Below, one piece after another: positions 2,675 through 27,691 of a stretch of DNA of 64,000 nucleotides. Within the stretch, counting starts at the first letter, position 1; each line of letters opens with the position of its first letter. This DNA comes from a virus. Its lineage: Duplodnaviria; Caudoviricetes. Location of the stretch: IMG/VR virus record IMGVR_UViG_3300012983_000039, positions 27,306-91,305 of that record. The stretch is one strand, 5' to 3'. A program made the translations under genes and the position numbers. Below the pieces are notes generated by a model, which made no database searches, was not told the DNA's origin, and saw only the letters and a list, made by a program, of their open reading frames with translations.

Positions 2675-3538
2675 ATGGCAAAAAGAAAAGAGTTAAATGA
2701 ATATTATCGTAATAAGTTTGGAAAAGATTTTTCAAGTTCAACTCTTAGTAAATGGGGCAAAGAAGGGAAGATTAGGCGAGAAATCCTGCCAAATAAAACT
2801 TATGATTGGAATTTTGAAGATTTTAAGAATATTGTTGATTCAGAACAATATTATAAAAAATTAAAAGCAAGGAAACAAAAGCCACAAGATTTTATTGGAA
2901 AAACAAAAGGATATTTATATATCAAAGGGATTGTACCCGTGGAAGAACGGAATCAAGAATATCTTGGAACAATGATGTATTGCGATTGTTTAAGATGTGG
3001 AAAGAAGAATATTCAAGTTAGATTCACATACTTGTCTGATAATGGAAATTATCATCAATATGGCTGTGGATGTGAGAGAAAAGAAAGAGCTTTTTTAGCC
3101 AGTGCAAGAAAAGGACTAACATCAGAACTATTATTTTCTTATAAAGACGATTTTGAAAAGTTTCTTTTTATTCATAAAGCATTGGTGGGAAATACAGACA
3201 AATATTATACAACTTGTGCAATTGAAGAATATATACAGACAATAGATTATTTTTATAACAATGAACAATTTAACCAATTATATCTTTTTTTGGGAAAAAA
3301 TAAAAAAGAGAACACTTTTTATGACTGGGGTAAACCAAGCTTAGACCATATAATCCCTAAATCAAAAGGTGGCGGACATAATAAAGAGAATTTACAATTT
3401 TTAACTGTTTTTGAAAATTTAGCAAAAAGAAATATGACATGGGCTGAGTGGGAAAATTTTAAAGAAAAAACACATATAACGTCAGATTATTTTATCGAAA
3501 ATATTATTACGAAGAAGGGAGGGGTGGATTATGAATAA
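2675..3538 (+). CDS. Free-standing HNH endonuclease (probable homing endonuclease)
   Basis: SLDHIIPKSKGG-H-ENLQ-LT-EN-K HNH motif; CDC-RCG and GCGC zinc motifs; N-terminal HTH-like segment. Confidence 0.85.
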   Translation: MAKRKELNEYYRNKFGKDFSSSTLSKWGKEGKIRREILPNKTYDWNFEDFKNIVDSEQYYKKLKARKQKPQDFIGKTKGYLYIKGIVPVEERNQEYLGTMMYCDCLRCGKKNIQVRFTYLSDNGNYHQYGCGCERKERAFLASARKGLTSELLFSYKDDFEKFLFIHKALVGNTDKYYTTCAIEEYIQTIDYFYNNEQFNQLYLFLGKNKKENTFYDWGKPSLDHIIPKSKGGGHNKENLQFLTVFENLAKRNMTWAEWENFKEKTHITSDYFIENIITKKGGVDYE

Positions 3539-6500
3539 TATTGCAAGATTTGATTGTCATTCACATAGCGAATATTCAAACATCCGCTTACTTTGACAGT
3601 ATTAATCGTCCTAGAGATATGATTTTAACAGCTCATAAATTAGGTATGAAAGGTATAATTTTAACAGACCATGAATGTCTATCTGGTCATGTAAAATGGC
3701 TGAACGAAGAAAGAGACTTAAAAGAAAAAGGGTTGATCCCTCCTGAATTTAAATGTGGTTGTGGCAATGAAATTTATTTAGTGAATGATAGAAATAATAT
3801 TCAATGTTATTGGCATTTCATTTTGGCAGCAAAAAACACAGAAGGACATAGAGCTTTAAGAGAATTAAGTTCAATTGCATGGCGTAATAGTTATTCATCA
3901 AGAGGTTTAACAAGAGTGCCAACTCAAAAAAATGAACTCAAAGAAATTGTTAATAAATATCCAAATACTTTAATTGCTACGAATGCCTGTCTGGGCGGTG
4001 AGCTTCCGCATTTAGTAGAAGAACTTGTAAAAGCAGAAAAAAGAAATTCAGAAGATGAAATAATTAAAATTAAATTAGAAATAGTGGATTTTTTAAACTA
4101 TTGTCTCGAATTATTTGGAGAAGATTTTTATATTGAAATCGCCGCTGCCCCAACAAAAGAACAAAAACTTTTTAATCAAAGAGTGAAAGCAATTGCGAAA
4201 GCTTATGGAATAAAGATAGTAATTGGTTCAGACGCTCATTATCTTACTTCGAACGAAAGAGAAGTTCATAAAGCTTATCTTAATTCAAAAGATGGGGAAC
4301 GAGAAGTAGATAATTTTTATTATTATGCTCATATGATGGATAATGAGGAAGCTTATAATAATATTTCAGATATTTTTACAGAAGAAGAATTTAAACAAAT
4401 CTGTGAAAATTCTATGGAAATTTATAATAAAATTGGGAGTTATGATATCTTTAGAAATCCTATTATACCAGAAGTTCAGGTAAAAGATTACCCTCCATTT
4501 ACTTGTGAAACAGATTTTACTGGGGGCTATAACCCAGATTGGTATTTCCCCACAATTGATGATTTATTGTGTAGTCAAGAAATTCAAGAAAGATATTGGA
4601 TTAATGAATGCTTAAACGCATTGCGTGAAAAAGATTTATACAATACAAAATATCTTGCTCGTATCGAAACCGAAGCGAAAGTAATTAAAACCATCGGAGA
4701 AAAACTTGGAGATTGTTTGTTTAAATACTTCAATACTTTTCAACATTTTATTGATTTATTTTGGAATTGTGGGTCTCTTGTTGGACCCGGAAGAGGGTCA
4801 GCAGTATGTTTTTTATCAAATTATTTATTGGGTGGACAATAATAGTAACGCCCATTAACATCTAATTATTTATTAATAATGTTATTTAAGCAGCTTAAAG
4901 TGTAAGAAACACATTCTTAAATAGCATCGGGGAAGCCTAAATCTTTACAAATGAGATATGGTAATCCCGAACCAAGTGTTAAATATTCAAAAAGGGAAAA
5001 TAAAATAAAATAAAAGAAGGAGGTGAAAGATATATATATGTTTTGTTATAGAATAGTAAATAATATAAATAAAAAGGAATATATTGGAATAACTGCTGAT
5101 TTTGAAAGAAGAATGAAACAACATAAAAATCAAAAATCCAATAGTTTGATTCACAACGCTATCTTAAAGTATGGTAAAGAAAATTTTACTTATGAAATTT
5201 TAGCTTCGGAATTATCTATAGAAGAAGCTGAAAAAATGGAAATTGACTTGATTAAAAAAAGAAATACTTTAGCTCCAAATGGATATAATTTAGCAAAAGG
5301 CGGATTACATGGCGGCTCTAAAATAAAAATAACAGATGAACAAGTAGCTTATATAAAAAATAATCGAAATTTGCCTTTATATGTTCTTTATGATGAATTT
5401 TCAGATTTAATTTCTTACGGGTATTTTAAAGAAATATATAAAAATAATGTAAGACCAGACATTAAGCCTGCAGTAGAAATGTATCCATACAATTTAGAAT
5501 TTTCAACTCAATTTACTAGAACTAAATTAACTTATCAAAATGTTGTAGATATAAGAAAAGCTTATGCCAATATGATAGATTGGAAAGAGATATATCCTAA
5601 ATATAAAGACAAAGTTGCCGAATCTACATTTTTCGATGTCTACAGAGGTCAAAGCTTTATGTTGATAATGCCAGAAGTATTTTCAGAAGAAAATAAAAAG
5701 AAACATTTTTCATTATCTCGTTCTGGTTCTAAAAATGGTAATGCTAAATTAAAAGCTGATGATGTTAAATTAATACGAAAAATGCATGAAGATAAGAAAA
5801 CAAATAAAGAAATTAATGCTTATTTCCCTCAAGTATCAATTGATACAATACGTGATATAATAAATTATCGAACTTGGAAGAATATTTAACAAAGGTGTAT
5901 CGACTATCCTAGTTAATAGGAGTAGAGCTACTATTGATACTTAGCTCGAAATGGTGTTCTTTCTATAAACAAATAGAAAGTAAGATATAGTCAGGTCTTA
6001 TAGAAATATAAGAATAACCGATTACGCAACTAGACCCAGTTAAATGGGGTTTACATTATTGGAGATTTTTAAACGAAGAAAGAATAGAGCTACCTGATAT
6101 TGATATCGATCTTGCTCCGTCAAAGAGAAAAAAAATTTTTGAGGAAATTAGAAAAGAGCGTGGAGAATTAAATTGTATTCAGGTTTGTACTTTCGGTACA
6201 GAAGGGACTAGATCTAGTATAGCAGCTGCTTGTAGAGGATATAGAAGTTCAGAATATCCCAATGGTATTGATAATGAAATTGCTTTATATTTAAGTGGAT
6301 TAATTCCTAATGAAAGAGGTTTCTTGTGGTCAATAAAAGAAATGGTTTATGGAAATCCAGAAAAAGGTAGGAAACCAAATGAAACATTTATAAGAGAACT
6401 CAACAAATATCCCGGACTATTAGAAATTATTGAGTCAATAGAAGGATTAGTGTGCCGCAGAGGACAACACGCGTCTGGTGTAATTTTCTATAACTCAACT

Positions 6501-15390: not shown

Positions 15391-15424
15391 AGAAGAGGAG
15401 TAGATTAATTTCTACTCCTCTTTC
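15391..15424. terminator. Bidirectional terminator between the converging replication and late modules
   Basis: GAGGAGTAGA-TTAATT-TCTACTCCTC stem flanked by A- and T-tracts. Confidence 0.85.
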
Positions 15425-15787
15425 TTATTTTACTTTGTAAATATTCCATATATATCTGTCTGAACAATCGAAGGTATCATAAAGAGTTCCATTTAAAACG
15501 CAAGTAATATGACCGTTCATAGTAATAAGCCATCTACCTTTTAAATTTAATTTTAAAAAATCCTCTACCGTTTTAACTCTTTCTGTTGGATAAAATTTTT
15601 CAAATCTTTCTGCTAGATATTCGTTAATGAAATCTACTTCCGTAAAAGTAATTCCTTTTCTACACCCATAATCAGATAGCATTTTATAGGTCTTGGTCCA
15701 ACTCCAATTTAAAGCTAATGAAATTGCTCGAACAACACAGTCATTAACTTTTCTTCCTAAAGGATTGGCATTGTAATATTCCCACAT
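15425..15787 (-). CDS. Cassette gene F: putative papain-fold (Cys-His-Asp) peptidase/transglutaminase-like protein
   Basis: NDCVVRAI ... NGHITCV ... YDTFD spacing suggests a catalytic triad. Confidence 0.55.
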   Translation of the reverse strand: MWEYYNANPLGRKVNDCVVRAISLALNWSWTKTYKMLSDYGCRKGITFTEVDFINEYLAERFEKFYPTERVKTVEDFLKLNLKGRWLITMNGHITCVLNGTLYDTFDCSDRYIWNIYKVK

Positions 15788-16332
15788 TAGATTTTTTTCA
15801 TTTTTTCTAAATGTTTCCTTATTACTTCTTTTTCTTTAGGAGTTTCAGCAAAGTCAGCAAGAGACTCTACAAACATACAAACCGCCGCCATAGCCATTTC
15901 AATACCATCTATCATACGGCTTTCACCGTCTCCATGGCGATATCTGTCTCGTCCTTCGTTATAGGCGTCCATACCTTCCATCATTCTTTCCATATAACGT
16001 TCGGAGCGTTCGTCTAAATAAGGATAATTTCCATATCTACCTCTTGCTTCCCAACGACCATCGTTATAACCTCTTTCATTATAACCTCTGTCATAGCCCC
16101 TTTCATTATAACCATCTTCCATATATCTTCCTCTACTATCACGTCTTTGGAACATATTATAATCACCACCCTTTTCTTCATCAATTTCAGATTGATAGTA
16201 TTTAGCTTCTTTTATATCCTTGTAAATATCTATAAGCTTAAAAGTAGTTTCAAGATTAGAAGAACTTATCCCTTTTTCAGCTATAGCTCCTAATTCTTTT
16301 TCTACTTTTTCAAGCAACTTGTTCATATCCAT
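15787..16332 (-). CDS. Cassette gene E: helical protein with central R/G/Y low-complexity repeats
   Basis: RRDSRGRY and GYNER/GYDR repeats between predicted helical ends. Confidence 0.75.
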   Translation of the reverse strand: MDMNKLLEKVEKELGAIAEKGISSSNLETTFKLIDIYKDIKEAKYYQSEIDEEKGGDYNMFQRRDSRGRYMEDGYNERGYDRGYNERGYNDGRWEARGRYGNYPYLDERSERYMERMMEGMDAYNEGRDRYRHGDGESRMIDGIEMAMAAVCMFVESLADFAETPKEKEVIRKHLEKMKKI

Positions 16333-16335
16333 TTC

Positions 16336-16731
16336 TTATCCCTCCTCTGTAGTAGTTTCAATAGGTAATGCTGAGGCGGCACGAGAACATCCAGAACAAC
16401 CTGTCTTAGCTAATAGTTTAAAAACTCCGCTTTGAATATCTGTATGAACTTTTACAGGATAAATTTTTCTAGGGTAAATCTGACAAGCATTTACATTAGA
16501 ACAATTACAATTTACTAAAGGATAAGCTGTTGTATCTGTTCCAATTGTAATTGATACTGTCGCCGCAATTGTTGTTTCCTCTGGAATTTCCTGAGCAATT
16601 AGTAAACAATATCTTTCGCAATTACCATAAGAACCTTCTGGCAAATTAATAGTTAATACTCCATCGGCAAAAGTAATTGCTTGTGAGAGAACAAGTCTCT
16701 CACAAACACATTTAACACTAGGACAACTCAT
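16336..16731 (-). CDS. Cassette gene D: Cys-rich beta-strand protein
   Basis: 10 Cys in 131 aa; alternating beta pattern; GGAGG RBS. Confidence 0.75.
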   Translation of the reverse strand: MSCPSVKCVCERLVLSQAITFADGVLTINLPEGSYGNCERYCLLIAQEIPEETTIAATVSITIGTDTTAYPLVNCNCSNVNACQIYPRKIYPVKVHTDIQSGVFKLLAKTGCSGCSRAASALPIETTTEEG

Positions 16732-16744
16732 ATGTTATCCCTCC

Positions 16745-17641
16745 TTAGCAGCAAGCGCCGCAACCGTTATTTAAAAAAGCATTAACTGGAAAAGTCTGAT
16801 AAGGACTCATTACCGGATAAGCTGGCTTAGGACAAGGCTGAAGTTGTTCAATTAAAGCTCTTGTCTGTGAGTTCTGAGAAAGCTGGAATTGAGCAGATTG
16901 AAGTTCTGTTCTAAGCTTATCCATTTCAGACTGAACAAGATGATTGATTATTCTATCTGTGTTTCTATCAGCATTAGTAATAATATCACAAGTCTGTTGA
17001 GCTAAAGCATACTTAATATTTTCTTGTCCTCTTTCAAGATTGCAACAACAGCTTGCTAACTGATTAGCTAATGAATTGAAGCCAGCCTGTGTATTAAATC
17101 TGCTTTCCATAAGTCCCTGTTTAGTTTCACAGCAACAATCTTTGATGTTGTAGTTAGTCTGCGCTATAGCGGAATTAATTCCATTAAAGCCTTGACACAG
17201 TGTTGACTGTAAACCATTAAAACCTTGAAGATTTGCTCTATCTGCCGCACACATAGCTTGCTGGAACTGAGTGCCAAGATTTGTTATACCGAGATTTACG
17301 CTATAAAAACCATCACACAGACCTCTTTCAAGACCTCTCTGTCCATTATCTAACTGATTAAAGTTAAAAGCATCAGTTAAACTTTGCTGAGTTGCCGGAA
17401 CACAACAAGCATTATAGCCAAAGCTGCCAAAGCCACCAGTTGGAACTACTACTGTATTTGTGCCGCCATCGCAACCACAACCATTTCCACCGTTATTGCC
17501 CCAGCCACGACCATTCATTCCTAAGAATAATATAAGAACGATAATCCACCAACCAGAGCCATCACCAAAACCATTATTCGAACCATTGCCACCATTTCTG
17601 AGCGCCAATGCGTCCGCCACCGTAAGACCTTTTTCTTCCAT
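16745..17641 (-). CDS. Cassette gene C: Gly/Asn-rich, Cys-rich coiled-coil protein with an N-terminal hydrophobic segment
   Basis: Start moved to MEEKG (GGAGG RBS); WWIIVLILFL; 18 Cys including two CCC and a terminal GCGACC; GF/GL repeats. Confidence 0.8.
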   Translation of the reverse strand: MEEKGLTVADALALRNGGNGSNNGFGDGSGWWIIVLILFLGMNGRGWGNNGGNGCGCDGGTNTVVVPTGGFGSFGYNACCVPATQQSLTDAFNFNQLDNGQRGLERGLCDGFYSVNLGITNLGTQFQQAMCAADRANLQGFNGLQSTLCQGFNGINSAIAQTNYNIKDCCCETKQGLMESRFNTQAGFNSLANQLASCCCNLERGQENIKYALAQQTCDIITNADRNTDRIINHLVQSEMDKLRTELQSAQFQLSQNSQTRALIEQLQPCPKPAYPVMSPYQTFPVNAFLNNGCGACC

Positions 17642-17669
17642 AAATAAAACCTCCATTAAAATATATTTA

Positions 17670-17906
17670 TTACTTTAATAGACTTAGAAAATTATTTAAC
17701 TCCTGACCAAAGTTCTGTCCTCTTTGTCTAAAAAAGTTTTCAGCTATTGAATTGATACTATTAGTATCTCCTTTTTCGGCATATTGAATAAGTTCATTAA
17801 TCATAGGATCATTTATATTATTATTTTTAATATAAGACATCACTATTTGCTGAGGGTTTTGCCCTTTAACTAAATTAATAAAATCCATATTTATCATAAA
17901 TTCCAA
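17670..17906 (-). CDS. Cassette gene B: small N/Q-rich helical protein
   Basis: NPQQIV...; overlaps the end of gene A. Confidence 0.7.
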   Translation of the reverse strand: MEFMINMDFINLVKGQNPQQIVMSYIKNNNINDPMINELIQYAEKGDTNSINSIAENFFRQRGQNFGQELNNFLSLLK

Positions 17907-18316
17907 TCACCCTTTCCTTTTGAAGTGTTTTGTATATCAGATATCTTTTGTTCTATCTGACTTAATCGTTTTTCATATTGTTGGAGCTGAGAAACTATTT
18001 CATTTTCTTCTTGTTTTACTTCCTCTTGTGTTGACTGTGTTTTGTTTATATCCAAGGGAGCAATTTTATAAGCCCAAAATAAAGGGTTTCCATTCTGCAT
18101 GGTTTTAATATACATTACTCCTTCCTGTAGACATAAAGCTACTGAAATTCCCGCTCCCACCGGAACATTAGCCACCTCTAAAGTTGAGTTAATATTATAT
18201 ACATTACCTTGAGGTTGGGGAAATAAAGGCTGAACATTCTGTTGAAATTGCGCCGCCCCTTGTGAAAAACACATATTTTGATTTTGACCTTGATTTGTAT
18301 TATAATTGTAGGACAT
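17894..18316 (-). CDS. Cassette gene A: Q/N-rich N-terminus, small beta domain, C-terminal coiled coil
   Basis: GAGGTG RBS; MSYNYNTNQGQNQN...; VMYIKT...FWAYKI. Confidence 0.75.
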   Translation of the reverse strand: MSYNYNTNQGQNQNMCFSQGAAQFQQNVQPLFPQPQGNVYNINSTLEVANVPVGAGISVALCLQEGVMYIKTMQNGNPLFWAYKIAPLDINKTQSTQEEVKQEENEIVSQLQQYEKRLSQIEQKISDIQNTSKGKGDWNL

Positions 18317-18449
18317 TTTATCACCTCACTTATCCTTTCACCTAATAGTGAATTTTAAAAACCAAAAATTAAAAAAATTGGATAAACATAAGGAAAGTTC
18401 TATTTTTTAGACAATTTCATTTTCCTTATATTTATCCATTTTTTACAAA

Positions 18450-18815: not shown

Positions 18816-18826
18816 ATTTTTCCTCC

Positions 18827-19981
18827 TTAAAATTGAGAAATTAAAATTTTATTTTCTGGATAATTGCTTATATTAGAAACAGCGTCCGAGGCTGTAAAAA
18901 AACCTGTGTTCGCAATACAACCTATTAACCTAGTTGGTCCAGAATTAATTGTAATATGGCTTCTTATTTCTCTATTCACAATTTTATTTTCCAATTCAGT
19001 TTCAATTGAACGATAAGGACCATAACCGTATCCAGAGTATCCGAAGTTTTGAAAAGGATAACAGCTTGCTATTTGATAGAATTTTCCCTGTAGATTATAA
19101 ATATTTCCATTCATTAAGTTATTATACACATAATCTTTTATTTCTGTTGGGTAGCTATATGAAGATGAAAGAGTTGGATATCCTCTGCCGCCCCAACCAG
19201 AAAAACCACCATCTCTTTTTAAAGTTGTTATAATTGATTCACCATTACGTCCATGAAGAAAATAAACTGAACGTAAGAGTTTCGCATATACTCCAAAATT
19301 CATTAATTGAGTTTGTTTATCTCCTATGTCTCCCAATTCATCTCTACATAGTTGACACATTACAGATAATTCATAATCTGTAATTAAATTTTCATCAAGT
19401 TTTTGAGAATAATAATGTTCCATTTTTGAAGTTGGTATCAAAGATGTTTCAACTGGAAAATTTCCATTGACTTCCTTAACTTTTAAATATCTAAAAAGTT
19501 TATTTAAAAAGCCACATGGATTAGAAGGAGGAGTTAATCTAAACTCCTCTCTATCCGTCCATATTCTACTTACATCAGAACCATACCAAGTTCCTTTTCT
19601 TATCTGTAAATGTAAATGAGGTCCAGAACTATAACCGGTATTACCAGAAGTTCCTATAATCTGTCCATTTTTAACTATATCGCCTTCATTCACATCAACT
19701 GTTTTGAGATGCATGTATGTAGCATAGTAGGTTTCTCCTAAATTTTGAAATTCAATTACAATACAATTGCCCGTTTCCGTAGTGCTTCCGCCATACCAAG
19801 TATTATAATTTCTATCTTTTCGAGTTAAGAAAATTTTTCCGTCTGTAATCGCATAAATTGGAGTGCCTTCTGGAATGGCAAAATCAACAGAGTCTGTTCC
19901 ATCGTGTGAATGGTAGCCCGGCACATCATCATCATTAACAAAACGTCCATTTTGAATTGGAAAACTCCATATGTGTTTCAT
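18827..19981 (-). CDS. M23 family peptidase (peptidoglycan hydrolase; tail-associated or lysin)
   Basis: H...VDFA..EGTPIYA..DG, YMHL, GNTGYSSGPHLHL. Confidence 0.88.
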   Translation of the reverse strand: MKHIWSFPIQNGRFVNDDDVPGYHSHDGTDSVDFAIPEGTPIYAITDGKIFLTRKDRNYNTWYGGSTTETGNCIVIEFQNLGETYYATYMHLKTVDVNEGDIVKNGQIIGTSGNTGYSSGPHLHLQIRKGTWYGSDVSRIWTDREEFRLTPPSNPCGFLNKLFRYLKVKEVNGNFPVETSLIPTSKMEHYYSQKLDENLITDYELSVMCQLCRDELGDIGDKQTQLMNFGVYAKLLRSVYFLHGRNGESIITTLKRDGGFSGWGGRGYPTLSSSYSYPTEIKDYVYNNLMNGNIYNLQGKFYQIASCYPFQNFGYSGYGYGPYRSIETELENKIVNREIRSHITINSGPTRLIGCIANTGFFTASDAVSNISNYPENKILISQF

Positions 19982-25645: not shown

Positions 25646-27691
25646 TTAATAGAATAAAGGATTGTATTCTATCTCTGCTTTATTTAAAATATCAGCATAC
25701 CCATAATATAAAGGAGGAAAGTTAGCCCAGATATAATTACAAGCGTAAAACCACCATTCTTTAATTTCTCCTTTTATATTATCTTTTCCTTTTTGAGCAT
25801 ACCAATATAATTGAATTGTTTTTAGAAATTTATACTCTTTTTGAATAGAAAGTTCTCTTAATAAATCATGGGCAAATTTATTATCCTTATATTTTTCGAG
25901 TTCACTATCATTTCTAAAGTTAAGTTCTTCTTCATCAAATTGTTCTTTCCCTAAATAATCCTGTGCCGCCCTACGATAAACTTTATCAAAAAGCTCTTTT
26001 ATTTCTTTGTCTTCTCCATATCCCCATTGAAAATCTCTAGCATCTAACCAAGTCTTGCCTCCCCAATCTTCATCATCACAAACTGGGATTATATCTATTA
26101 AAGACCAGCCAGTTGGAATTTTAAACCAATGCCCCTCTTCAATAGCCTCATTAAAGATATTTTTAGTTTTTTTAATAGGAAAAGTATTTTCGATTGTTTC
26201 ATTATATAAAATTCTTTTTTCTGTATCTAAAAATAAAACATTTTCCTTATTGTCTTTTAAATTTATTTTCAAGTAATCGTCTGTATACCAAATAGGCAAA
26301 CTATTTATATTAAAATTAATTTGAGGATATAATAGTTCAAAATTTTGTCTAAAAAACTCTGGAGGGTTATTAATATAATTATCTAAAAATTCTGAAAAAT
26401 CTTTTTCTTCAAAAACTATATTAGATTTATAATTAGACAAAAGCATTATCAGAGTTGTCCAATATAATTCATAGATTTCTCTATTTGTAGAACAATTATT
26501 GTAAAGTTCTTCATATCTGTTGGCTATATATTCTCCCTCTTCAATACAATAACTATTATCAATTAAAGAAGATTGGTAATAGAATAGACGAATGTAATCT
26601 CCTAGTTTTTCTCTAGGAATTGGTTCTGCTACGTAGGCAAAATCGGGATGTAAATCTTTTATTTCTTCATATTCTACTGTATTTATATCTTCTTCATTTT
26701 CATTAATTTTTATTTTTTTAAAATACTTATTACCATACTTAAAATTCTTATTATCTTCTAAGTTTTGAGTTTTCATAAAAGTATAATCTACTGCCATAGA
26801 TATCGGAAGTTGCTGAACATTATAGCGCCGAATACAGAACTTAGAACCTCTTTGTTTTAAAGCATTATCTATTTTTAATTTAAAATCAATTGGAATATCT
26901 CCCGGATTATAAACTAAAATTCTACTACCAATCATTCCATTTTCTTTTTCTACACCTATGTCCATATTTATATTATTAATTTTAGAATATTGAGGCATAT
27001 ATATTAAACCTTTTTTATTATCCAAAGTAGGAGAATACAGTAATCCACTACTTTCTGCCCATTCTGGAACATTATCAAAATAATTTCGAGTATCAGAAAG
27101 TTGTTTTTCTCCATTTAAATTAAAAAATAACTCTCCATCTTGGGCTTGTTTGAAAGATGGAAAACCGCCTTTCCAAACTTCACTATTATTATAATTTACA
27201 TTAAAGAATTTACGAACTCCATTTTCTTTATAATAGTCCGCCGCCTTAACTAAATATTTGTTAAAACAATAAGCATAGGGGAAATAACAAACAAAAGTTA
27301 AACTACCTTCTCCTTTATAAACTCTTTGTTTCAATTTTTCATCATAAAAACAAATCACTTTAAACTCTGGCTTGCTTTTTAATTTAGCTTTATAAACTTT
27401 ATAAGGCAGTTCATCAAAAATCAAGTCTTGTAATTTATCTGTAGAGAAAATCTGAGAAATTTTTCTCCAAATTTTTTCACTTACGCTATCAAAAGCTACT
27501 TCTATTTTAAAATCTCTAGGTTCAAAAGTTGAACCAAAATAAGCACTGCCATCACCGCCAGTTATAGAACTGGTATAATCTTTATGGGGCGGCACAACTT
27601 GTTTTTCATATCTATCACTTACGCTTATTACTTTTAAGTGTAAATCTTCTGAACTTACATTTCCAAAGCGAAAAGATAAAAAATCTTCCAT
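25646..27691 (-). CDS. Distal tail protein (Dit) with insertions
   Basis: FLSFRFGN.SSEDL, GGDGSAYFG, LIFDELPYKVY, F.CY.PYA, YNPGD; follows the TMP. Confidence 0.75.
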   Translation of the reverse strand: MEDFLSFRFGNVSSEDLHLKVISVSDRYEKQVVPPHKDYTSSITGGDGSAYFGSTFEPRDFKIEVAFDSVSEKIWRKISQIFSTDKLQDLIFDELPYKVYKAKLKSKPEFKVICFYDEKLKQRVYKGEGSLTFVCYFPYAYCFNKYLVKAADYYKENGVRKFFNVNYNNSEVWKGGFPSFKQAQDGELFFNLNGEKQLSDTRNYFDNVPEWAESSGLLYSPTLDNKKGLIYMPQYSKINNINMDIGVEKENGMIGSRILVYNPGDIPIDFKLKIDNALKQRGSKFCIRRYNVQQLPISMAVDYTFMKTQNLEDNKNFKYGNKYFKKIKINENEEDINTVEYEEIKDLHPDFAYVAEPIPREKLGDYIRLFYYQSSLIDNSYCIEEGEYIANRYEELYNNCSTNREIYELYWTTLIMLLSNYKSNIVFEEKDFSEFLDNYINNPPEFFRQNFELLYPQINFNINSLPIWYTDDYLKINLKDNKENVLFLDTEKRILYNETIENTFPIKKTKNIFNEAIEEGHWFKIPTGWSLIDIIPVCDDEDWGGKTWLDARDFQWGYGEDKEIKELFDKVYRRAAQDYLGKEQFDEEELNFRNDSELEKYKDNKFAHDLLRELSIQKEYKFLKTIQLYWYAQKGKDNIKGEIKEWWFYACNYIWANFPPLYYGYADILNKAEIEYNPLFY

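Follow-up and report, generated by a model that had tools for sequence, protein, structure and literature searches.

The 64,000-nucleotide stretch of viral DNA analysed here (the window: positions 27,306 to 91,305 of the Caudoviricetes record IMGVR_UViG_3300012983_000039, a 91-kb IMG/VR virus record with an estimated completeness of 56%) carries a cassette of six minus-strand genes, A to F, which belongs to a module that recurs in many phages. By its genome positions and its adjoining endonuclease genes, this module behaves like a self-contained, mobile and functionally important unit. The reading which we favour, tentatively and with rather less than even confidence, is that A to F are one copy of a mobile accessory module whose products would form a complex of a stalk and a knob, built in the cytoplasm, held at the membrane and trimmed by a protease. 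A literature search found no study on the module, and none on the Bacteroides host strain of phage C3_41T2LP, one of its carriers.

The cassette had been singled out in an earlier note on this DNA. The six open reading frames (ORFs) described there are present and tightly packed, neighbours overlapping or standing 3-13 nucleotides apart (Table 1), and the compositions given for their products could be reproduced: the segment WWIIVLILFL, two CCC motifs and the end GCGACC in C, a Cys-rich D of 131 residues, GYNER/RGRY repeats in E, and the pattern DCVVRA...GH...D in F. The Cys density which the note had called abnormal stands out in the window, as C (18 Cys, 5.9%) and D (10 Cys, 7.6%) have the highest Cys share of its 57 ORFs, the overall share being 1.2%.

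The co-conservation of A to F, which the same note had put forward as a check of its proposal, was borne out, and the unit is kept across many unrelated phages. Iterative searches over the fetched loci recovered the full A-B-C-D-E-F order in the close lineage, and a B-C-D core in distant phages such as the Dulem viruses and Clostridium perfringens phage CPD1. A scan of IMG/VR with a second C subfamily yielded more than 530 loci, of which 80 were kept: A-like, B, C, BclA_C-like and E genes stand together in 51 of these, and F, A-like, C, BclA_C-like and E genes in another 21. Grouping 102 loci at about 70% identity of C gave 27 clusters, 18 of which have the whole set of A-like, B, C, knob and E-like genes; the loci are non-independent samples, and all such figures are to be read as counts and not as statistics. 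The core of the module would consist of an A-like protein, B, C and the knob, to which E and the protease may be an add-on pair.

The spread of the module can be followed through C, which matches phrog_16490 (profile match, E-value 1.1e-23) and has more than 2000 word-index relatives, with 920 representatives at 50% identity. Homologues of full architecture were recognized by reading tblastn matches in Bacteroides uniformis phage C3_41T2LP and in many crAss-like phages, and they are also present in the N4-like Vibrio cholerae phage 12VC501 (ECCCDLRTGQADIK...NADKNTQRIVD), in Pseudomonas phages KPP23 and RSP, in C. perfringens phages and in two viruses assigned by their depositors to Methanomassiliicoccales; a gene of vir215 is annotated as phrog_16490. 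The phrog_16490 genes of crAss-like phages (e.g. cr116_1 QOR59421.1 and C3_41T2LP WLZ21182.1) are of the same family as C, the cr116_1 homologue at an E-value of 1.8e-50, and their products share its order of Gly/Asn-rich linker, hydrophobic helix, CCC-bearing helices, coiled coil, Pro-rich tail and Cys cluster. Within the genome collection the module family occurs on phage-like contigs of metagenome bins only. In the Bacteroides and crAss-like phages the genes after C encode a protein rich in beta structure, another that combines a beta domain with a coiled coil, a small one rich in Arg, Asp and Tyr, and HExxH proteins, which by analogy recall D, A, E and the protease; the hhalign comparisons of the A-like protein with the crAss 168-residue protein and of D with the crAss 136-residue protein were not significant.

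The position of the module in the genomes is as diverse as its carriers. In the window, its relatives, loci L037-L047 and 12VC501 it comes last on the late strand and converges with replication genes. Elsewhere it is found between a MuF-like head protein and the scaffold in L001, L016 and L087; inside the tail cluster in L018; after the lysis cassette in L020; and beside recombination genes in CPD1 and C3_41T2LP. In KPP23 it diverges from the terminase and lies among non-structural genes. Such variation in position speaks against a fixed role in the virion or in lysis. A small gene resembling sigma-70 region 4 stands upstream of the module in several loci. In L037, L040 and L042 a gene for a DNA-invertase-type serine recombinase (VLYGYARVSS.DQN) is located at about 3025-3750, between tail-fibre-like genes and the module, which suggests that these phages have invertible fibre segments.

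Furthermore, genes of HNH or I-HmuI endonucleases adjoin C or sit inside it in several loci, and the presence of such homing endonuclease genes suggests that C is a conserved and important target. HNH or I-HmuI-type genes lie in the gap between B and C or just upstream of C at 4089-4739 in L002, at 5170-5841 (minus strand) in L016 and at 2967-3587 in L024; the gaps of 450-570 nucleotides between B and C in L012 and L015 are unexplained insertions.

The alignments of the C family revealed one conserved architecture. It opens with an acidic N-tail of about 31 residues bearing an amphipathic motif (GLSVADALAL or YSLADIAAATG) and continues through a Gly/Asn-rich linker into a hydrophobic helix (median 13 residues, with Trp at each end) and a second Gly/Asn-rich linker. 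Next come long helices, which carry GFNG-type repeats and either one or two CCC motifs, and a coiled coil (LRxExQ..SQxxQ) that is strongly conserved; a Pro-rich tail (P.P.PAY..PY) and a Cys cluster form the end of the protein. Beyond the hydrophobic helix there are about 170 residues of long helix and the Cys-rich tail. The database relatives of gene C begin at its second Met, which gives a protein of 298 residues. An AlphaFold model of C, of low confidence (predicted local distance difference test, pLDDT, 59), has helices at residues 36-47, 99-153 and 160-272. The N-tail contains 3.6 Asp or Glu against 1.0 Lys or Arg, and an Arg follows directly after the hydrophobic helix; the acidic tail and this Arg would fit an orientation with the N-terminus out and the C-terminus in. 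C would span the membrane once as an anchor, the short acidic N-tail lying outside and the stalk on the cytoplasmic side. This placing of the stalk follows that of the partner proteins, which should stay in the cytoplasm, A, B, D, E and F being without a signal peptide as judged from their sequences.

The second structural element of the proposed complex is D, which has 121 relatives. The earlier note had taken D as beta-rich; the sequence alone does not show this, and the structural model agrees with it, having eight strands at pLDDT 80 and a predicted template modelling score of 0.70. The best match in the PDB is residues 235-340 of 9b45_2 (Z 5.2, root-mean-square deviation 4.9, 97 aligned residues; the next match has Z 3.4), which is the C-terminal domain of a baseplate or tail-fibre chain of Pa193. 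Among the predicted viral structures of BFVD, stand-alone homologues rank first, and are followed by the C-termini of collagen-like, T7-fibre-like, hyaluronidase-fibre and receptor-binding proteins (E-values 1e-5 to 1e-3, TMq 0.43-0.57). According to its model, D appears to resemble the C-terminal tip of phage fibres. Foldseek gave nothing in the PDB at E-values up to 0.001, the D profile found nothing credible among PDB sequences, and there was no Pfam match. Of the Cys positions of D only three reach a conservation of 90% or more, and in every C/D pair examined Cys clusters are present at the C tail and at the D terminus. The simplest assembly which we infer would be a knob-capped stalk, joined by the Cys-rich ends of both proteins.

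In other modules the place of D is occupied by a protein that appears to be BclA_C/C1q-like. The proteins of L023 and L020 match BclA_C (PF18573) below its 38-bit cut-off (E-value 8e-8 and 32.7 bits for L023, E-value 1e-4 for L020), and the members from L046, L047 and L087 were grouped by jackhmmer only. A comparison of the D profile with the L023 protein by hhalign was not significant (probability 0.1%). The best PDB sequence match of the L023 knob is 9H38, F-BclA-CTD (E-value 0.001), and F-BclA-CTD is a C1q-type tip protein of endospore appendages (PMC12357932). As a separate observation, protein P0236 has an A-like N-terminus (…FPQPQGNVYNINSTLEVA) joined to a D-like C-terminal half, and may be a recombinant, an A-D deletion or an assembly artefact.

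The main rival of the favoured reading, a strong one though rather unlikely in itself, is a virion-borne fibre or pilot, in which a trimeric stalk of C is capped by D and either docked on the universal HK97-type capsid or the tail, or packaged with its helix ready to insert into the membrane of the next host (compare phiX174 H and the ends of tape-measure proteins). A, B and E would then serve this structure as chaperones or adaptors, and F would be the protease of its maturation. Such a fibre agrees with the match of D to fibre-tip domains and the C1q-like knobs at the same position elsewhere, with the absence of signal peptides, as in virion parts, and with the frequent place of the module on the late strand past the tail fibres or in the interval between MuF-like head protein and scaffold. 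The crAss-like homologues are annotated as 'outer capsid protein/viral fiber' or 'spike protein/glycoprotein', which are remote-homology labels, and the tail of reovirus sigma1 and phiX174 H are among the structural neighbours found with the C model, which is non-specific. However, the same module is present in genomes of the podo-, sipho- and myovirus types as well as in archaeal-virus records, which would need a common docking site; in KPP23, CPD1 and C3_41T2LP it lies among non-structural genes; and the Trp residues at both ends of the helix are often seen in membrane-spanning helices. A search for longer, fused forms of D found no stalk-knob fusion, which is weak evidence against a fibre. 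Trimeric attachment fibres (reovirus sigma1, the tail fibres and needles of phages, collagen-like BclA with its C1q-like domain) likewise have a long helical stalk and a small beta-sandwich tip; in contrast, stalk and knob are here separate polypeptides, both with terminal Cys clusters, and the stalk of C starts with a membrane-type helix between Gly/Asn linkers. The earlier note had named an ordinary tail-fibre fold and a lack of co-conservation among the outcomes that would speak against its proposal: the first came true in part, as D appears to resemble fibre-tip domains, and the genes are co-conserved.

That proposal, an oxidation-cross-linked coat or matrix (a spore surface or an occlusion-like shell) made of C, D, A, B and E and processed by F, now appears highly improbable. 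The Cys clusters at the termini are reminiscent of the way in which endospore appendages use connectors (PMC12357932), many modules of Firmicute phages have a BclA_C-like protein instead of D, E is like Tyr-rich coat proteins in composition only, and a protease belongs to the gene set. Nevertheless, the predicted correlation with spore-forming hosts did not hold, as phages of Bacteroides, Vibrio and Pseudomonas carry the C family and the module, and so do methanogen-assigned viruses; this host range excludes a spore-specific role as a general explanation. None of A to F matches a spore-coat or exosporium family, including those of the CotY/ExsY/CdeC type, in Pfam and NCBIfam at E-values up to 1; no copies were found in bacterial sporulation loci; and the C1q/BclA_C fold is common in phage fibres too. 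The endospore appendages (Ena/F-ENA) and the Cys-rich proteins of exosporium and crust share with the module the Cys clusters on terminal extensions of small beta-rich subunits; there is no sequence membership in these families, and the module resides on phage DNA only, that of phages with non-sporulating hosts included. A self-assembling Cys-rich structure with a dedicated protease, the more general part of the idea, is still plausible.

Of the remaining members of the set, A, with its beta domain (PQPQGNVYNINSTLEVANVP...MYIKTMQNGNP), is kept in the close lineage, and distant modules have upstream of B an analogous Q/N/P/Y-rich gene that encodes a small domain and a helix; by hhalign (probability 7%, not significant) the homology of the two A types could not be demonstrated. 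According to jackhmmer, B adjoins C in most loci; a profile search found no Pfam or PDB relative of it. E matches phrog_28802 (E-value 1.5e-16), is present in most modules and co-occurs with the protease. A to E gave nothing significant against Pfam and NCBIfam, A and C retrieved only unnamed viral clusters from the ESM Atlas, and the PHROG matches of F, E and C are all to families of 'unknown function'.

F matches phrog_3754 (E-value 1e-23), and all of nine sequences, down to 33% identity, keep its Cys17, His93 and Asp104. Its likeness to papain-fold enzymes of clan CA (Tae4, C39) consists in a Cys near the N-terminus, at the start of a helix with the motif D-C-x-x-R-A, a His about 76 residues on and an Asp 11 further; in contrast to these, F is below every papain-type Pfam threshold and its profile found no relative among PDB sequences. 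The Tae4 profile gave an E-value of 0.018 and 15.5 bits against a cut-off of 27, in one of nine members only, and there was no match to the Peptidase_C39 or NlpC/P60 profiles. Outside the module, F-like genes stand by themselves in phages of Bacillus, in Lak phages and in Pseudomonas phages of the PAK_P1 type.

The protease belongs integrally to the module, in which the earlier note had given F a processing or cross-linking role, and it is interchangeable. In L037-L050 the position of F, about 100-320 nucleotides after E, is taken by a zincin of 104-110 residues with an HExxH motif (e.g. at 6960-7271 in L046), which scores 29 bits with DUF6782 (cut-off 27) and has matches to M78 and SprT-like families as well. 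The zincin is held by 45 of the 102 loci, usually after E in the group with A-like, B, C, BclA_C-like and E genes. F is found in nine of the 27 clusters and the zincin in six, and both together in a single locus of the 102. One of the two proteases accompanies E in 12 of the 14 modules that have E, and neither is present in modules with phrog_17879-type genes in place of E. Judged by gene content, the protease step appears to be retained through non-orthologous replacement, which is the pattern of a functional unit, and the knob, D-type or BclA_C-like, would follow the same pattern. In L002, L003, L009, L020, L022 and L023 an alternative 3' sub-module downstream of the knob gene replaces E and the protease; it encodes a protein of about 70-77 residues that has a single hydrophobic segment, and a larger one, of phrog_17879 type, of 175-270 residues.

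The protease might also act on C, as the N-terminal motif of C (hydrophobic-S/T-x-x-D-I/A-A-A-x-T/R-G/N-G) could be read as a double-glycine leader, cut by F as a C39-like Cys peptidase or by the zincin, which would free a Gly/Trp-rich membrane-inserting protein. Double-glycine leaders have the consensus LSxxELxxIxGG; the motif of C is kept throughout the family and is in register with this consensus in the 'YSLADIAAATGG' subfamily, the protease is recurrent, and Cys17, His93 and Asp104 of F resemble the residue spacing of C39 domains. We consider such processing very unlikely, however: the Gly-Gly pair is not kept (NG, GS and GN occur), the protease-free modules of L002, L003, L009 and L022 still have the motif, Peptidase_C39 does not match F, and the module encodes no exporter.

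The weak Tae4 match of F bears on lysis as well. C might be a large single-span holin or lysis-timing protein comparable with T4 holin T, which has a big soluble domain, and be regulated by the other products, and F a cell-wall amidase or peptidase of the Tae4 or NlpC/P60 type. Of the envelope layers only the membrane is shared by all hosts, the modules of L020 and cr116_1 are close to lysis genes, and in the window, where a family scan placed the cassette after an M23 peptidase, no other small membrane protein was seen nearby. Nevertheless, a lysis function is improbable. The phages that bear the module have separate holins and endolysins; the relative L035 (G001:C1:72266-75619) carries a 611-residue multidomain Amidase_2 lysin 40 kb from the module, with a collagen-like protein before the lysin; no holin family of Pfam or PHROGs matches the cassette; five or six conserved partners are far beyond the needs of a holin; and, as said, the Tae4 match is confined to one F member. 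Moreover, the lysis and spanin genes of KPP23 (spanin pair KPP23_008) lie at 6.6-7.3 kb and the C homologue, ORF074, at 44.6 kb, and a spanin reading was rejected for this phage. The C family is also found in viruses of monoderm and archaeal hosts, which need no spanins. The i-spanin Rz, T4 holin T, phi29 p16.7 and phiX174 H resemble C in that a hydrophobic anchor at the N-terminus leads into a helical or coiled-coil domain, and Rz also uses Cys; in contrast, no homology was detected, and C is larger and has four or five conserved partners.

Returning to the membrane-held complex of stalk and knob, its parts could work together as follows. D, or the C1q-like protein of other versions, would cap the stalk of C through the Cys-rich termini of both, the bond being made by a metal, or by disulfides once the complex is released into oxidising surroundings. 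A, B and E may be assembly or holding partners, and B, which is rich in Met, may cover the hydrophobic helix. One of the components, with E as the prime candidate, would be trimmed by F or, in other modules, by the zincin. The site of action would be the inner face of the membrane of the infected host cell, where the exclusion of incoming phage, the tethering or organisation of phage processes at the membrane, and the control of the end of infection are candidate roles. A role at the cell membrane is favoured over a specific docking on the virion because the cytoplasmic membrane is the sole envelope element common to monoderm, diderm and archaeal hosts.

Several points weigh against this membrane complex. 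A coiled-coil stalk with a knob is the classic anatomy of a virion fibre, the crAss-like homologues of C bear the annotation 'viral fiber/spike', and most copies of the module are in or at the end of virion gene clusters. The hydrophobic stretch of C is short for a membrane span, the charge bias behind the proposed topology is weak, and the low-confidence C model (pLDDT as above) has fold matches that are generic coiled coils at Z about 7. Additionally, the modules of the Bacteroides and crAss-like phages have A-like, knob and E-like genes whose homology to A, D and E could not be demonstrated.

Table 1. Positions of the six genes and of the flanking signals in the window.
Feature	Position	Strand	Description
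gene A	17894..18316	-	140 residues; Q/N-rich N-terminus, small conserved beta domain, C-terminal coiled coil
gene B	17670..17906	-	78 residues; small, helical, Met/Gln/Asn-rich N-terminus, immediately upstream of C
gene C	16745..17656	-	303 residues; phrog_16490; hydrophobic helix, long helices and Cys tail
gene D	16336..16731	-	131 residues; Cys-rich beta-sandwich 'knob' (predicted), Cys clusters at both termini
gene E	15787..16332	-	181 residues; phrog_28802; helical ends, Arg/Tyr/Gly/Asp/Glu-rich low-complexity centre
gene F	15425..15787	-	120 residues; phrog_3754; small putative papain-like Cys-His-Asp enzyme
upstream hairpin and U run	18377..18438	-	18-bp stem; fold compared with shuffles
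bidirectional intrinsic terminator	15392..15423	both	terminator scan of both strands

Both boundaries of the cassette that had been described before, a bidirectional terminator and a long hairpin, were found. The terminator is common to the cassette and to the convergent RuvC-like and dUTPase genes. The stem of the upstream hairpin is AT-rich and is followed by a U run; its folding energy of -23.8 kcal/mol (z -5.8) was equalled by none of 200 shuffles. The motif TTGTCTAAAAAATAGAA (18398-18414, minus strand) lies within the loop and the 3' arm of this hairpin, its exact form occurs a single time in the window, and it is kept upstream of gene A in the relatives as TTGTnTAAAAnnTAGAA; from this pattern it may be a module-specific regulatory site. 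That TTGTnTAAAAnnTAGAA is a general promoter of this phage was ruled out, the window having 8 loose matches against 6.2 expected. The terminator scan also flagged a 13-bp GC-containing hairpin with a weak T tail at 16678-16708 (minus strand), in the 5' part of gene D, which is probably a by-product of the coding sequence. The M23 peptidase gene (18827-19981), in which a C-terminal part of about 250 residues is without known identity, comes after the gene of a 1883-residue tail protein.

Near relatives of the window are gut phage contigs of 150-230 kb, many of which read TAG as Gln. In L005-L008 and L012-L014 the genes, those of the module included, need this reading; the cassette of the window itself is open under the standard code. 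A DNA-level search of the phage collection with the cassette gave no match. In metatranscriptomes, two runs of one study each contained one contig of about 2.1 kb, over 15458-17602 and 15551-17705, which cover F through C of a relative about 96% identical to the window; these contigs show the presence of the region in RNA libraries only and cannot show a single transcript. The lack of coverage of the flanking tail genes is not readable as silence, as the contigs of the sample diverge from the window there (loose ends at 18820/18854).

It is conceivable, though doubtful, that the module stands for a new phage-built cellular structure: a membrane-anchored stalk and knob put together in the cytoplasm, with separately encoded parts, oxidation-locking Cys connectors and an interchangeable protease, with a function unlike that of known lysis, exclusion and virion systems, in viruses of Firmicutes, Bacteroidota, Proteobacteria and possibly archaea.

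The C family is plentiful in gut viromes, extends over several host phyla and virus morphotypes, and is repeatedly adjoined by homing endonucleases. The isolated carriers, phages of C. perfringens, Bacteroides uniformis, Vibrio cholerae and Pseudomonas aeruginosa, make the proposed role directly testable. Once this role is defined, thousands of phage genes, some of them crAss-like, would be annotated, and the module could bring to light a general infection step at the host membrane or else a fibre system that is portable.

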